Position numbers: made by a program. From positions 1 to 64,000 of the forward strand of contig JBDRPD010000025.1 in the NCBI GenBank assembly GCA_043827405.1: DNA of 64,000 bases, in the 5' to 3' direction. Below are positions 3,001-12,000 of this stretch, piece by piece. This stretch comes from Elusimicrobiota bacterium. Its GTDB lineage: Bacteria > Elusimicrobiota > Elusimicrobia > UBA1565. Within the stretch, counting starts at the first letter, position 1, and each line of letters begins with the position of its first letter.

Positions 3001-6000
3001 GACCGCCGCGCCGGCGGGGACCTTCCTGCGCATGAGCGACGGGCTGGTGAAGCGCAGCACGTAGAACGAATCGGATTGCTGCAGGATGACGAACTCCTCG
3101 TGGACCCACTCACGCTCGCCGACGTTGTACTCGGCGCCGGAGAGGTCCATCTCGTAGCGCATGCGCCACAGCACGGCCTTTTGCCCCGAGACCTCGATCT
3201 CCTCGAGCTTCTCGACCTTATTGCCGCCGGCGCCCATATGCCGCAGGAAGCTCCGCGGGTCGCGGTAGCGGGAACCCTTGAGGCCGTAGCGCACCACCGA
3301 GATGCGTACTTTCTCGTCGGTGTAGGTGATCTTGCGATCCGGCTGCTGGCGGGCTTCCGCCCGCCAGTCGGCGGGCACCACGCAGCGGAAAAACTCGGTC
3401 ACGCTCTCGGTCCTCGAAGGCATAGTGCCCGCCTCGGCGGGCATGCCGAACGCGAATAAAACAAGCGCCGCCGCCGCGGCTCTAGTTGTTTTTCGCGTAC
3501 CAGTGCTCCGGATGGTCGTGCCGGTCCGACTCCACGAACTCGTAGAACTGGGCCCGGCTCCATACGCCCTGGGGCAGCGTTTTCGGCGGCAGCGTTTTTG
3601 TCGCCAGGAGCCCGGCCAGCTTCTCCTCGTCGCGCGCGTTCTCTTCGGCGATCAGCGCGTAGTTCTCGTCCGCGGCGGCGCGTTTAAGCTTCGCCACCAG
3701 CTGCGGGTTGCGCTTCATGTAGTCCAGTTGCTGGCGGATGTAGTCGATGGTCTTCTGCGTCTTCTCAACCCGGCCGGGCATGAACTCCTTGCTGGACTCG
3801 TAGTAGCCCCGCACCATGCCGAGCTCGGACTTCAGGCCGTGGTCCTGCTCCAGATGCGCGATCTCCGCCAGCCGGGCGGGAATCTCCAGGCGCGCCATCT
3901 CTTCCGTCTCTTTCTGATGGTCCTCGAGCCGCTTGAGACGCCGCTCATAGGTCCCGATGGGGTCGGCCATTTCCTGCGGCTCCAAAGATCTGGCGTAGTT
4001 CCCGTTGACCATCTTCATGTCGGCCCAATACCCGTCGGGGTTGCGGCTGATATTGGCGGCGCTGTAGAGCTCGGCGTTGGGGGTGCCTTTGTTGAGCTCG
4101 ACCGCGATCAGCGCTCCCTTGAGCCGGGCTTCCTTCTCATTGCCGAGGTCGTAGTGCAGGATGTCGGCATACTCCGGCAGGTCGCGCTTCTTGCCGCTGT
4201 TCCAGCGGATATGCTGCAGCTCGTGGCCGGTCAGCACCGCCATGGTCTCCAGCGCCTGCTCCCGGTTCTCGTAGTCCATGAACTTCTTGTTGAAGGTGTA
4301 GGTCCAGTTGGCGGAATTGGCCGTGCCCCGCAGGCCCCGGACCGTCTCGACGCCGTCATCGACCATGCGCACCGAGCCCGCAAAGTCCTCGGCCCGAATG
4401 GTGACCTGCCGGCCCGCCAGCTTCGCCTCCTGAACCACATCATTGAGGATCCGCCGCCCCTCCTCCGACTCCTGCAGCTTGCCGATGACCTGTTTGACGA
4501 ACTTCTGCTGCTCGGTCTCCAGTGCGGGGCCCAACAGCTTGCTGTCTCCCAGCGCATAGCGCAGCTTCCGCTTCCACTCCGGCTCGCCCTTGTCGCCGGC
4601 GTCGATATAGATGTATTTCGCGATAGCCGCGTCGCTGACGCGCGGGATGATCTCAGACTTGGGGACGTCTTTGGTGCGCAGCCCCGGCTTGCCGGCGATA
4701 TCCGGCGCGAGCGCGGGCTCGGGGAGCTTGCCGCCGGGCCGTCCGGAAACGGCGGTCGGCGGCGCGCCCCCCAGCTCGCCGCGCTTCGCCGCCCCGGTGA
4801 AGGTCTTATCCAGCAGCGCCTTGGTTAACGGCGTCTCACGGCTGAACTTCGGAACAGCGCTCAGCTCTTTGCCGGCTACGGCATGCTTCTTCTCGCCGGG
4901 ATCAGTCTTGCTCTTCCCCTCGCGCTGCTCGCCCGGCTCGCCGTACTTGACCTGCTCAAGACCCAGCTTCTCCCGCAGCCGCGCTTCGCCGGGACGGCCG
5001 GCGCCGCAGTCGGCTTCGATTGCCTTGGCGGCGATCTTCTTCTGCTCGACGTATTTCAGGTAGCGCTTGCCGCACTCATCCGCAAACGCCGCCCGCGTCT
5101 GATCGACGATGACTTTTGGGGTGTGGCCCTGGGCGCAGAAGCCGTCCCACCTGCCGCGGGTGAGACCCCAGGCGGCGAGATGGTTTTCCTGGTACGCCTT
5201 AACGCAGCTTTCGGCTTCAGTTGCGGCACTATAGGCCGGGACCGCCGGCAGGCAGACGGCGGCAAAGAGGGCAAGCGCCGCTAGGCGTTGGGAGAGGGGT
5301 CCCATACCCCGAGTTTAACCCCGGATATGGCGGATTTCAATAGATAAATTAGCGGGGCGTCAGGCTGCGGCTTACCAGAAGCGTTCCAGATGGATCTGGC
5401 CGGGAGTCCGCTTGGTATGCTCAACAAAGCCCTCGTCACCCAGAAAGCGTATAGCGCTCTCTATCATGAGAGGATTACCGCACAGGAAAATATGGGTATC
5501 ATCCTTGGTCGGATGCATTCCCCATGCCTGATCCACCGCGCCGGCCTTCCAGACATCTTCAACGAAACCGGTCGCGCCTTTCCACGGGATAAGTTCGCCT
5601 TCCGGCTCGCTGACGACGGGAACATAGGTGAATTCCTTGGACATCCGGGAGAGGGTCTCAAGCTCGGAACGGTAGCCCAAGTCCCAGGAATTACAGGCGC
5701 CGTGGATTACCGCGTATTGCTTGTCGAAGCCGGTGGAGGTAACCAAAGTCCGCAGCATGGACATATAAGGCGCCAGCCCCGTTCCCGTCGAAATGAGCAG
5801 GACATTCGCCTCCTTGGGAACATTCTCCAAGGTCATAAGCCCGGTAAACTTCTTGCCCAAAAATACGCGGTCGCCGATCTTCAGGTCATAGAGCCGCGCC
5901 GTCAGGGCGCCCGAACGCACGAGCGTGATGTAAAACTCGACACAGTCCTTGGCGTGGCTTGATGAGGCGACGGAATAGGCGCGCAGAATAAGCTTGTCCG

Positions 6001-9000: not shown

Positions 9001-12000
9001 CAGCGCCCCGCCGCGCAGCTTCAGCTTGAAAACATGCGTAAGCTCGGGGATGTCGAGCAGCTCGGCGACCTGCGGCCCCACCTGAGAGGTGCTGCCGTCG
9101 AGCGAGTAGCCGCCGCAGAAGATCAGATCGAAGCGTCCGAGCTTGCGGACGGCGGCCGCGATAACCCGGGCCGTGGCCAAAGTGTCGGCGCCGGCGAAGG
9201 CCTTGTCGGTCAATAGGCAGGCCCGGTCACAGCCCATAGCCAGCGCCTCGCGCAGCTGCTCCTCCGCGTCCGGCACAGCCATGGTCAGCACACTGACGGT
9301 CGCGCCGAATTTTTCCTTCAGGGAGACGGCCTGCTCGATCGCCGTGCGGTCCAGCGGATTAATGACGGCCGGAATCTCGTTGCGGCACAGCAGCATGGTC
9401 TCCGGATCGAGCTTGAGCTTATCCCACTTGGCCGGATCCGGCACCGGCTTAATGCAGACGACGATGCGTAGTTTCATCACCGGTTCCTCTCTTAATTTAA
9501 AACGGTCCGCGACAGCACGATCTTGCCGATCTCGGTGGTTCCGCCGGCCGAGATGCAGACCATGGCGTCGCGCAGCAGCCGCTGGACCGGATACTCCATC
9601 ATCGCTCCGCAGCCGCCGTGGATCTCAAGCGCCTTGCGCGCCGCCCGCGCCGCCGCCTGGGTGGTGTAGAGCTTGGCCAGCGTCATCGCGGTCGCGCATT
9701 CCCGGCCCTTATCCTTGAGCCACGAGCCGCGATAGCAAAGCAGCCGCGCCGCCTCCAGATCGGTAATGATGTCCGAGATATGCCACTGGATGGCCTGCAG
9801 CGACGAGATCGGCCGCCGGTAGAGCGTCCGCTCCTTGGCGAACTTGACCGCTTCATCGTGGCAGGCCTGAAGGATGCCGAGCGCGGTGGCCGCCATGCCG
9901 GGCCGCCCGACCTCGCTGATGGTCTTGAGCGCGACCTTCATGCCGTCGCCCTCGTCGCCGACCAGGGCGTCGCTCCCGAGCCGGCAGTTCTTGAAGAACA
10001 GCTCACCGGTATCGGCGCCCCGCAGCCCCAGTTTGTCCTCGTGGCGGCCGGGCTTGAAGCCCTTGACGCCGCGCTCCACGACGAAGGCGCTTAAGCCCCG
10101 CGCCCCGGCGCCGGTCTTGGCGATAACCACCGGCGCGTCGCACAGGTGCGAGTTGGTAATAAAGCACTTGCGGCCGTTGAGCAGGTAGCCCGTCCCCTCG
10201 GGGTTCGCCGTGCTCATCATGCCGACGAGGTCCGAGCCGCCCGTCGGCTCGGTCACCGCCACCACCCCCAAATAGTCGCCGCGCGTCAGGGCCGGAACGT
10301 ACTTCTTCTTCTGCTTCTCGGTGCCCCAGTCGAGCACGGCCGCGATGTGCATGTGATGCACCTGCAGGCTGATGCCCACGGCGGCGGATACGCGGGAAAT
10401 CTCCTCGATGGCGGCCGTCCGGGCCAGGTAGCCCAAAGCGGAACCGCCGTAGGCCTTGGGCGTGATAAGGCCGAGCAGTCCCACCTCCCCCATTTCCCGG
10501 ATCAAACGCTTGGGATAGTCGCCGGTTTTTTCCATGCGGTCGACCAAGGGAGCGATTCGCTGCTGGGCGAATTCACGCGCGGTCCGCTTTACGATCTTTA
10601 CTTCCTTAGAAAGGTCGAAATCCATACTCTGACTCCGCTTAAAGCAAGGTTGGATGCTGCAGGCTTACGCAGACTTTATCAAATGGCGAAGCGGGGATGC
10701 TAACCGTCACGGCACGCAAAAAATCGTTTCTTTCAAAGGTAAATTTTTGGTAAACACCATAGAATTGCCGGCGCTCGCGTGCTACTCTTATGGCATAGCG
10801 CATGCGCATCATCTATCTGACACTTTCCTTCGTGCTGTTGGCGGCGCCCGCTCAAGCGCGCCCGGCGAACCAGGAGCTGACCGGCGCCGCCAACCAGCTG
10901 CGGCGGACGGCCCGACTAAGCGCCAACATTGTCCGCGGGCTTGATACGCGCCTGCAGAAAGCCAAAGAGAAGGCGCCTGACGCCGCCGCCCAACTGGACG
11001 CCATCCATCTCCGCCTGGTCGGCCAAGGCGGCAAGGGCGGACTGTGGTTTACCCTGGTGAGCGCGGACCGGGATATAGAAACGGCGCTCAAGATTATCGA
11101 CCGGTATCCTGATCCCTGCCGGGGCGCCAAGCTGGGGACCTGGGAGGCGCTGGTCGCGGCGGAGAAGCTGCTGCGCCAAGCCCTCGATGAGCTGCAGAAG
11201 GTTCCCGGCGAAACCGACGGCATCGCCGCCGCGGACGCGGCGCTGGCGCGGCTCGAAAAGGACGCGGGCGATGACCGCTTCAGCTGGAAGGCGCTGCGGG
11301 CGCGAACCGCTCTCATGAGCTACCGGCGGCGCCAAGAGAAAGGCCTGAGCGCCATCAAGAGGAGCCTCCAGGCCGCGCTGCGCGCTCCAGCTTTCGGGCG
11401 GATCGGACAGCTCGGCAGCCGGGATTCCTGCGGCGCAGATCCGGCGCGCGAGACGGACGCCGCCGCGCCGGCCGCGGATAACGCCGACCCGCCGGATAAA
11501 GCCGCCAAGACGGAGATCGATCCGCAGTTCAAGGCCGGCGTGGACTCTATTGTCAAAGCATCCAAAAAGCCCTGCGACGCCGCGCAAGGAGAACCGATGG
11601 CGCTGCGGCGCTACGACAGCAAGGGCAAGGCGCAGTACTACAGCTTCGCCAGGCAGTGCCAGAACAACGCGGTCAAATCGGTGCTGAGCTCGCTGGAAGG
11701 CCAGCTTGCATGCGGCAGCATGGACTACGCCTGCAAGCGCGGCGTCCGCACGCTGGGACTGGACGCCAAGGAGAGCTTTACCGCCTGCCTCGACAAGAGC
11801 GGCTCCGCGGCGGCCTGCCTGCGGGAGAGCGTGACGGCGATGCAGGACAACGGGGTCTACCAGGACGCCGCCGCCCGCCAATGCAAGAAGGCCGAAGACG
11901 GAGCGCAGTGCCGGCAGCAGTTCCTGGAAGACCAGCTGGAGGCGGCGTTCAAGGACGTCCTGGAACGGGAGATTCCCGCGGCCGACAAGCGCTACACGGT

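Follow-up and report, generated by a model that had tools for sequence, protein, structure and literature searches.

Organization of the locus

The window, a 64,000 nt stretch of contig JBDRPD010000025.1 from an Elusimicrobiota bacterium, carries a four-gene operon on its minus strand between positions 5372 and 10625, exactly where the survey's finding had placed it. The operon opens with a protein of the acyl-CoA dehydrogenase (ACAD) fold that lacks the catalytic glutamate (P0003, 377 aa; 9492..10625), followed by EtfB (P0002, 265 aa; 8680..9477). The third gene is a single ORF of 826 aa (8680-6200) with zero internal stops, in which an EtfA half (residues 1-330; 7691..8680) is joined by a linker of about 15 residues (331-345; 7646..7690) to a predicted FAD/[4Fe-4S] domain resembling 4-hydroxybutyryl-CoA dehydratase, AbfD (residues 346-826; 6200..7645). 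The Pfam positions reported for this protein were confirmed (ETF 11-176, ETF_alpha 211-289, HpaB_N 347-616, HpaB 624-815). Last comes an accessory ferredoxin-NADP-reductase (FNR)-like flavoprotein (P0004, 270 aa; 5372..6184). The ACAD and EtfB genes are 14 nt apart, EtfB and the fusion overlap by 1 nt, and a 15 nt gap precedes the FNR-like gene. A promoter and terminator scan returned 1 and 6 sites, the same as in shuffled sequence. No RNA data set was listed as covering the operon, and a single RNA run compared with it yielded no record.

The EtfA::AbfD-like fusion is real and conserved

The survey had read the fusion as genuine, and the ACAD/EtfB/EtfA::AbfD-like genes are borne out as a tethered, conserved module, carried by uncultured anaerobes. 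Both halves of the fusion are covered in 102 of the 120 best homologues listed, and 101 of the 120 (query counted) measure 800-900 aa. The linker attaches to the FAD-bearing end of EtfA and has a fixed length across homologues, the span from H285 to N360 being 76 residues in 101 of 106 and 75 in the other five. A contig that comes from another study runs through the junction (6404-8331), differing by 23 substitutions and without gaps; the 22 substitutions tabulated for this second strain touch 20 codons, 17 of them synonymously, and create 0 stops. An assembly artefact is ruled out by the homologues and by this unbroken junction. A metagenome scan yielded nine loci only, five of which were the fusion, and the Protein Atlas gave generic family names only, with a whole-fusion model of pTM 0.60. 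A literature search that covered titles and the starts of abstracts, with subscription journals outside its scope, found no description of the fusion or of the clade to which its AbfD-like domain belongs.

The AbfD-like domain keeps the fold but not the active site

The model of the AbfD-like domain (pTM 0.90) superimposed on AbfD (1u8v) with a TM score of 0.94 and an rmsd of 1.7 Å at 40% identity. The domain shares with AbfD the HpaB_N and HpaB Pfam families, Arg90 (R433 is kept) and the three cysteine ligands of the [4Fe-4S] cluster, C99, C103 and C299, which correspond to C442, C447 and C641 in 120/120 homologues listed. HpaB-type flavin monooxygenases also belong to this Pfam family and adopt a similar fold (TM 0.76-0.84), but at only 20-24% identity, and the domain scored 132.5 against NCBIfam HpaB-1 (cut-off 480.2) and 68.2 against HpaB-2 (cut-off 885.2). 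These low scores and identities exclude an HpaB monooxygenase, and the AbfD cluster cysteines are kept.

The survey described a full dehydratase, which is right as to length and fold but not as to the active site. In all 120 homologues listed, the fourth cluster ligand, H292, is replaced by tyrosine (Y634), T190 by C534, E257 by Q599 and Y296 by I638, while E455 is lost within a four-residue deletion (deletion/G784). In addition, K300 is V642, and two further invariant cysteines have appeared, C737 and C785, which together with C534 sit near the flavin. Five of the eight residues reported as needed for dehydration (10.1101/2020.02.05.935528), namely H292, T190, E257, Y296 and E455, are thus changed, whereas all eight control AbfDs retain all five, including the histidine ligand. 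Amongst clade members in GTDB, the five are likewise changed in 63/63 complete proteins that have cysteine at the T190 position; three further members have alanine there and six are cut. Because five of eight required residues are altered, the proposed dehydration of 4-hydroxybutyryl-CoA is not supported.

In a tree, a long stem separates the AbfD-like clade from canonical AbfD. The AbfD-like part is the best conserved portion of the fusion (mean identity 76%, against 53-67% for EtfA), which argues against a domain in decay. A decaying pseudo-enzyme is excluded by this conservation, by the invariant new residues and by the 17/20 silent codon changes in the second strain.

One alternative is that the dehydratase site has been rewired, so that 4-hydroxybutyryl-CoA is still converted to crotonyl-CoA and then butyryl-CoA, with Tyr634 replacing His292/Tyr296, Cys534 replacing Thr190/Glu257, and Cys785 replacing Glu455. 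The fold shared with AbfD and the placement of the new tyrosine and cysteines at or beside the lost residues are consistent with this idea. Against it, the Glu-to-Gln change at the E257 position is reported to lower the activity of the Nitrosopumilus maritimus enzyme, and the alanine at position 190 in three members removes the proposed cysteine. Together with the missing glutamate of the ACAD and the gene neighbourhoods described below, these changes make the rewired dehydratase quite unlikely.

An acyl-CoA dehydrogenase without its catalytic glutamate

P0003 matched four Pfam ACAD models, has the FAD motifs and superimposed closely on 4l1f (Z 51.9; rmsd 1.6 Å over 370 residues). The catalytic glutamate is missing at both known sites, with glycine at G361 (the Bcd/MCAD site) and G240 (the IVD site) in 120/120 homologues listed. 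A Bcd-type reductase, as had been proposed, is not supported because the catalytic glutamate is glycine.

The search for another catalytic base in the pocket placed none with confidence. E238, which aligns with a conserved aspartate of Bcd, is invariant in the 120 ACAD homologues listed, and is arginine in the five unfused loci covering the position. A broken helix lining the pocket carries Q88, H90 and M92 in 120/120 homologues listed and H91 in 119/120; one of the 120 has aspartate at position 91. ACADs that lack the glutamate and perform other chemistry are precedented, and in one of them, the 1,4-dehydrogenase Ch1DH, the base (Asp91) has moved to a broken N-terminal helix (PMC9293079). Both proteins lack the canonical glutamate, and the base helix of Ch1DH is the site of the invariant QVHHM stretch of P0003, but that stretch contains no aspartate and the two proteins share only 34% identity. 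Read by eye, the register maps Asp91 of Ch1DH to M92 or an adjoining residue. H91 is a candidate base, though the register favours M92 for the Asp91 place.

Of the 301 Elusimicrobiota genomes, two carry the AbfD-like gene, and these two are also the ones with a Glu-less ACAD. Across the clade they are not obligate partners, since the best ACAD match was Glu-less in just 5 of the 28 genomes inspected and Glu-bearing in 23. A predicted complex of the ACAD and the AbfD-like domain scored 0.00 in a run whose controls did not fold, and counts neither for nor against contact between them.

PMC9293079 names one more Glu-less ACAD, a desulfinase. This precedent, and the invariant cysteines C534, C737 and C785 near the flavin, would fit sulfur chemistry, in which C-S cleavage or sulfur oxidation of a CoA ester that carries a thiol, sulfinate or persulfide would require no carbon base. 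HdrA-like genes, found in 6/72 clade loci, point the same way, but this link may reflect synteny inside one archaeal group. P0003 scored 218 against the desulfinase model (cut-off 600) and the fused operons have no recurrent sulfur-specific gene, leaving sulfur chemistry improbable.

The ETF subunits and the question of bifurcation

The best PDB matches of EtfA and EtfB fall among the bifurcating Bcd-EtfAB and CarCDE systems (5ol2, 4kpu/4l1f, 6fah), with which the operon shares the ACAD-EtfB-EtfA order, the electron-transfer FAD residues and a glycine of EtfB. The electron-transfer FAD site is kept in EtfA (R248 and S265 in 105/105 homologues, H285 in 106/106). In contrast to those systems, the ACAD lacks its glutamate, EtfA lacks Arg146, the EtfB motif is altered and a second enzyme is joined to EtfA. 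At the second nucleotide site, the arginine (R146 of 4kpu) is V141 here and valine in 102/102 fused homologues, and Asp130 of 4kpu is H126. As this arginine is present in 214/216 bifurcating and 447/449 canonical ETFs, EtfA matches neither pattern. Valine occupies the same position in 120/120 unfused homologues listed; the Arg-less EtfA is thus a wider subfamily, and its changes did not arise for the fusion.

The bifurcating FAD signature of EtfB, left unchecked in the survey, is present in part. The glycine equivalent to Gly123 of A. fermentans, which leaves space for the second flavin in bifurcating EtfB (PMC12630350), is kept as G128, but next to it Gly, Tyr and Ser stand in place of the Arg, Gln and Asp that bifurcating ETFs have. 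The suggestion of electron bifurcation finds no support despite the retained glycine: the loss of the second-site arginine from EtfA makes it doubtful that this ETF bifurcates.

A functional parallel may be Ldh-ETF-Bcd of Fusobacterium nucleatum, whose ETF links an oxidation to an ACAD-type reduction directly, with no bifurcation (PMC12630350). That system has a separate lactate dehydrogenase, a bulky residue at the Gly123 position and a canonical Bcd, whereas the partner here is a fused AbfD-like domain predicted to hold FAD and an Fe-S cluster. By analogy, we infer that the present complex may be coupled in a similar manner.

Clade distribution and gene neighbourhoods

Clade members that lack the fusion come from both archaea and bacteria of sediments. 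EtfB was present in 32/72 clade loci and in none of the eight canonical AbfD loci, and two distinct ETF types have been recruited within the clade. The other 40 clade loci had no EtfB in the available sequence, many of them being short contigs; EtfB is also missing from loci of Ignavibacteria and Zixibacteria that have full flanks.

These distributions bear on another alternative, in which the fusion is a tether only: the AbfD-like domain would catalyse a redox-neutral elimination or isomerization on a substrate other than 4-hydroxybutyryl-CoA, the ETF would serve the ACAD alone, and the fusion would set stoichiometry and channel product. The many unfused members with no ETF nearby favour it, as does the AbfD superfamily itself, whose dozens of clusters differ in their active sites. 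Flavin-dependent, redox-neutral C4 elimination is also known from BbuA, which acts on another substrate (10.1101/2021.01.25.428109). The recurrent ETF genes, the loss of the residues that elimination uses for acid/base and radical steps, and the fixed linker length all speak against a mere tether, which we regard as unlikely. A redox role for the AbfD-like domain is favoured by the EtfB gene in 32/72 clade loci, since an ETF would be superfluous to a dehydratase that is redox-neutral.

Other neighbours give weak ties to C4 acyl-CoA metabolism; this general part of the survey's reading is retained, but not the specific AbfD and Bcd reactions. Such neighbours are a Phe-type mutase in 15/72 clade loci and a phosphotransacylase-butyrate kinase fusion that adjoins two loci (L008 and L134). 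CoA ligases also occur in unfused operons, a PaaK-like one at L068 and another in a Thermoplasmata operon. A permease family is common to clade loci (5/72) and canonical AbfD loci (3/8), at 34-44% identity, which along with the C4 context would suit a rewired dehydratase. So would the finding that, among 40 clade genomes, a match of >50% to canonical AbfD exists in just one. Canonical AbfD was likewise absent from all 301 genomes of the phylum Elusimicrobiota, but its absence says little because it is rare anyway. A CoA-transferase accompanied 3/8 canonical AbfD loci and 0/72 clade loci, contrary to what 4-hydroxybutyryl-CoA dehydration would suggest.

The CoA-transferase-like gene elsewhere in the genome (g03458), cited as support for a 4-hydroxybutyrate pathway, does not serve that purpose: it has 32.5% identity to the transferase beside true AbfD, falls far below the NCBIfam cut-off and adjoins a NifH/CfbC-like gene. 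The genome has three iron-containing alcohol dehydrogenase and eight aldehyde dehydrogenase family members, families so broad that they speak neither for nor against a supply of 4-hydroxybutyrate, and no butyrate kinase above cut-off.

The FNR-like gene was not upheld as a fixed part of the operon, since no homologue was found in the 80 genome loci examined; a nitroreductase-family gene takes its slot in 4/9 other fused loci. Its composition is also distinct (GC 0.58 and GC3 0.73, against 0.65-0.66 and 0.85-0.87 for the core genes). The low GC and the absence beside relatives rule it out as a core subunit.

A proposed redox loop tethered through EtfA

The reading we favour, at about even confidence, is that an FAD/[4Fe-4S] oxidoreductase coupled to the ETF joins with a Glu-less dehydrogenase in a tethered redox loop, the substrate being a short-chain acyl-CoA. 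Its observed basis is the fold, the fusion, the linker, the residue changes and the gene context. The three core genes would encode one flavoprotein complex whose net redox reaction differs from that of the AbfD/Bcd pair. The AbfD-like domain would still bind FAD plus a [4Fe-4S] cluster, Tyr634 perhaps serving as fourth ligand or as base, and would give electrons to, or take them from, the FAD domain of EtfA, mobile on its 15-residue linker. EtfA would ferry electrons to the Glu-less dehydrogenase, most likely a reductase or a non-canonical (de)hydrogenase. Given the changes at the ETF's second nucleotide site, such a loop would not need NADH-driven bifurcation, in which it resembles Ldh-ETF-Bcd. 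Electrons may be balanced by an NAD(P)H flavoenzyme that is exchangeable, being FNR-like in this operon and nitroreductase-like in others, and the product probably enters the crotonyl/butyryl/isobutyryl-CoA pool.

More tentatively, and with rather less confidence, we speculate that the jointly altered trio is a covalently wired, NADH-independent loop. The enzyme of AbfD fold, its [4Fe-4S] cluster ligated by Cys3-Tyr, would then be an acyl-CoA oxidoreductase of a new, ETF-dependent class, and its electrons would be taken by the Glu-less ACAD, in an undescribed step of organic- or amino-acid breakdown that is widespread in groundwater and anoxic sediments.

As the textbook radical dehydratase, AbfD serves as the marker gene for 4-hydroxybutyrate carbon-fixation cycles. 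The present clade carries the AbfD name in databases yet lacks the catalytic residues, a probable case of marker-gene mislabelling; its members probably run an undescribed redox reaction. The dicarboxylate/4-hydroxybutyrate cycle proposed in Thermoprofundales rests on MAG SG8-52-3 (PMC6461988). The sole AbfD-family gene that we found in this MAG is an unfused member of the clade, and the inference needs rechecking because that gene lacks the AbfD catalytic residues. The Arg-less ETF subfamily offers a way to probe the role of a near-invariant arginine. If the ETF coupling is true, the AbfD fold performs net redox chemistry so far undescribed, possibly with a Tyr-ligated cluster, and the fusion would provide a soluble three-gene package open to expression and assay.

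The EtfA::AbfD-like fusion and its operon

Four genes lie together on the minus strand of the window, as the survey's finding had described, and encode an acyl-CoA dehydrogenase-family protein (ACAD, P0003, 10625-9492), EtfB (P0002, 9477-8680), the 826-aa EtfA::AbfD-like fusion (P0001, 8680-6200) and an FNR-like flavoprotein (P0004, 6184-5372), spaced in that order by a 14 nt gap, a 1-nt overlap and a 15 nt gap. The four Pfam domains of the fusion were confirmed at the claimed residues. Fusion residues 340-826 were used as the homolog query; 8000 candidates were scored and 3427 proteins had E <= 1e-50, and among the best 120 listed (query included), 101 were 800-900 aa in length and 102 covered both halves. 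Elusimicrobia, Acidobacteria and candidate phyla are the sources of the named fusion homologs among the matches listed. In a second groundwater study, one contig covers 6404-8331, across the fusion junction, with 23 substitutions and no gaps; the 22 substitutions tabulated sit in 20 codons, 17 silent. The linker is fixed in length, with H285-N360 spanning 76 residues in 101 of 106 homologs and 75 in the other five. The fusion is thus real and conserved, as had been claimed.

Elsewhere in the window, the plus strand carries two calpain-family genes (Peptidase_C2; 10802-12919 and 13379-15088) whose products have a long N-terminal extension, and a small lipoprotein-like ORF comes after each (12882-13280 and 15089-15484); the arrangement resembles two tandem protease/partner pairs. 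Directly downstream of the operon, the minus strand encodes a protein of 607 aa that looks secreted and matches no Pfam family (3482-5305), and then a short ORF (2965-3444).

An altered AbfD-like active site

The survey had read the C-terminal half as a full 4-hydroxybutyryl-CoA dehydratase (AbfD), and its predicted model (pTM 0.90) does match the reference AbfD 1u8v (TM 0.94). AbfD is reported to require the ligands C99, C103, C299 and H292, plus T190, E257, Y296 and E455, and Glu-to-Gln and Thr-to-Val variants of the Nitrosopumilus maritimus enzyme lost much activity (10.1101/2020.02.05.935528). Counting equivalents along a HMMER alignment of the fusion to 1u8v, we found the three cluster cysteines retained (C442, C447 and C641), with H292 replaced by Y634, Y296 by I638, E257 by Q599, T190 by C534 and K300 by V642, and E455 lost within a four-residue deletion. 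This fingerprint, together with new cysteines C737 and C785, was present in all 120 listed homologs; judged by these residues, the C-terminal half falls outside canonical AbfD. Within the fusion it is the most highly conserved part (mean identity 76%, versus 53% and 67% for the EtfA domains) and is therefore under selection. The fusion is the sole AbfD-family gene of its genome.

Among the best 80 of 205 confirmed GTDB loci, 72 belonged to the clade defined by the altered fingerprint, fused or unfused to EtfA (63 with the full fingerprint, three with Ala at the T190 position and six partial sequences), and the other eight were canonical AbfDs, all retaining the eight required residues. A profile search of 50% clusters, with the best 150 listed, provided 85 near-full-length sequences, aligned with 15 references (100 rows). 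Tyr at position 292 was confined in this set to the clade and P0244, its sister. A quick tree was built from 74 of these rows, with the weakest hits omitted and SH-aLRT as the sole support measure. In it, the clade and P0244 formed one fork (support 100, stem 0.59); support was 82 for the 11 clade rows alone, 99 for the three fused rows and 100 for the 10 canonical rows. The AbfD superfamily (P0243-P0391) comprises dozens of such clusters, their active sites rewired in different ways; several carry the source name 4-hydroxybutyryl-CoA dehydratase, and canonical AbfD accounts for only 10 of the 74 tree rows.

Unusual ETF and ACAD partners

The EtfA half retains the electron-transfer FAD site (R248, S265 and H285). 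By alignment, V141 occupies the position of R146 in Acidaminococcus fermentans EtfA, a second-site Arg reported for 214 of 216 bifurcating ETFs and for 447 of 449 canonical ones; replacing it by a neutral residue leaves little FAD or AMP bound at that site (PMC8958531). Val was found at this position in all 102 fused homologs among the best 120 listed, and His replaced the Asp at 4kpu position 130 in all 101 fused homologs among the matches listed. The same pair occurred in all 120 listed unfused EtfA homologs (P0448-P0567), those named being mostly from Syntrophales, Thermodesulfobacteriota and relatives, and so marks a wider EtfA subfamily. The EtfB retains a Gly termed invariant in bifurcating ETFs (PMC12630350), but the adjoining Arg, Gln and Asp are altered. 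Bifurcation, raised as possible by the survey, is therefore unsupported, the residue test being mixed. In Baldrarchaeota and Heimdallarchaeota genomes, related ETFs adjoin Glu-less ACADs, unlinked to the AbfD-like gene of those genomes (L131:7446-8462; L135:1896-2963).

The ACAD keeps its fold (Z 51.9, rmsd 1.6 A over 370 residues versus the Bcd 4l1f). In 120 of 120 listed homologs, G361 takes the place of the Glu that precedes the last helix, and G240 occupies the alternative Glu position in the first C-terminal helix; the protein is not the Bcd that had been proposed. E238, aligned to a conserved Asp of Bcd, is invariant in the 120, and its position holds Arg in the five unfused loci covering it. 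Q88, H90 and M92 are also invariant, with H91 in 119. The ACAD catalytic Glu is described as present except in a desulfinase and in Ch1DH, whose base is Asp91 (PMC9293079). Asp91 lies in the same broken helix as the Q88-M92 stretch and, by our own reading of the register, would fall at M92 or a neighbour. A role for H91 is conceivable. Sulfur chemistry is a very unlikely reading of the complex. Second Glu-less ACAD paralogs, with another pocket motif and no ETF neighbours (L132:3331-4467; L133:3470-4612), occur in two genomes that both carry the unfused operon.

Gene context across relatives

The operon core is three genes: ACAD, EtfB and the fusion. The FNR-like gene, which the survey had included in one fixed complex, is lower in GC and had no homolog in the best 80 of 205 loci. 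Its slot, in nine other fused loci with downstream DNA, holds a nitroreductase-family gene in four (L001, L008 and L134 by search; L007 from its first codons, read by eye) and unrelated genes in five. EtfB was encoded in 32 of the 72 clade loci versus none of the eight canonical loci. Within the phylum, the same two of 301 genomes hold both the AbfD-like gene and the Glu-less ACAD, a patchy and linked distribution. The same Glu-less ACAD and Arg-less ETF recur in six unfused bacterial loci (one ACAD partial). In Thermoplasmata loci, the same AbfD-like protein has a canonical ACAD and another ETF type as partners. Two observations argue against a fixed partnership: clade members in Ignavibacteria and Zixibacteria stand by themselves, and in just five of 28 clade genomes inspected at their best locus (33 genomes searched, three of them controls) was the top match a Glu-less ACAD.

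Neighbouring genes lean towards a C4 pool for the putative substrate. A PaaK-like ligase directly follows the AbfD-like gene in seven unfused bacterial loci, five of which also have a permease of a family common to unfused clade loci and three of the eight canonical loci (34-44% identity). In Thermoplasmata-type loci the partners are an AMP-forming ligase (22/72 clade loci), DUF6125 (28/72) and a mutase whose specificity position is Phe (15/72), which we take to be the mark of an isobutyryl-CoA mutase. L008 and L134 adjoin a phosphotransacylase-butyrate kinase fusion, a single ORF divergent from the operon (L008:4639-6852; L134:5353-8625). The permease family (460 aa, no Pfam or NCBIfam match; L026:5076-6467, L016:13460-14830) is a candidate transporter for 4-hydroxybutyrate-like acids.

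Of 40 clade genomes, just one had a protein that matched canonical AbfD at more than 50%, and several hold extra 39-44% paralogs. No butyrate kinase scored above the cut-off in the fusion's own genome. The survey's route from 4-hydroxybutyryl-CoA through crotonyl-CoA to butyryl-CoA, if run through the rewired site, appears unlikely. The distant CoA-transferase cited for this route has 32.5% identity to an AbfD-adjacent transferase and scores 172 against a cut-off of 675. It adjoins a NifH/CfbC-like gene (270 bits, below both cut-offs) and its neighbours (L138:2-1252 to 6503-7927, contig C101).

A possible ETF-coupled oxidoreductase

With the radical-elimination residues gone and the cluster cysteines retained, the simplest reading is that the AbfD-like domain would be an ETF-coupled FAD/[4Fe-4S] oxidoreductase acting on a short acyl-CoA, which EtfA would link to the Glu-less ACAD in an internal redox loop, perhaps comparable to Ldh-ETF-Bcd of Fusobacterium; we give it about an even chance. 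The fold, fusion, linker, residues and context are established by the analysis. Coupling is suggested because in one branch of the clade the AbfD-like domain is joined to the end of EtfA that carries FAD, and because a redox-neutral dehydratase needs no ETF, yet the clade adjoins two unrelated ETF types. A rather unlikely alternative is that EtfA is only a tether and the AbfD-like domain performs a redox-neutral reaction on another substrate, for which BbuA offers a reported precedent (10.1101/2021.01.25.428109). Overall, the conserved fusion and operon of the survey's finding stand, its canonical AbfD and Bcd do not, and its bifurcation is unsupported; the module is a variant form within the AbfD and ETF/ACAD families, probably with a different chemistry, and is easy to test.

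A literature search, mostly of titles and abstracts and with subscription journals outside its scope, returned no description of the fusion or clade. An Elusimicrobia survey mentions Bcd/EtfAB; the words 'dehydratase' and 'fusion' were not found in its main text, and its supplements could list the gene (10.1101/765248). EC 4.2.1.120 has been used for pathway calls (PMC9802188), and a dicarboxylate/4-hydroxybutyrate cycle was proposed for the Thermoprofundales MAG SG8-52-3 (PMC6461988). The one HpaB_N match in that MAG is a protein with the clade fingerprint (L067), from which we infer that it is the gene behind the proposal. The clade is a caution for the widely used marker gene AbfD.
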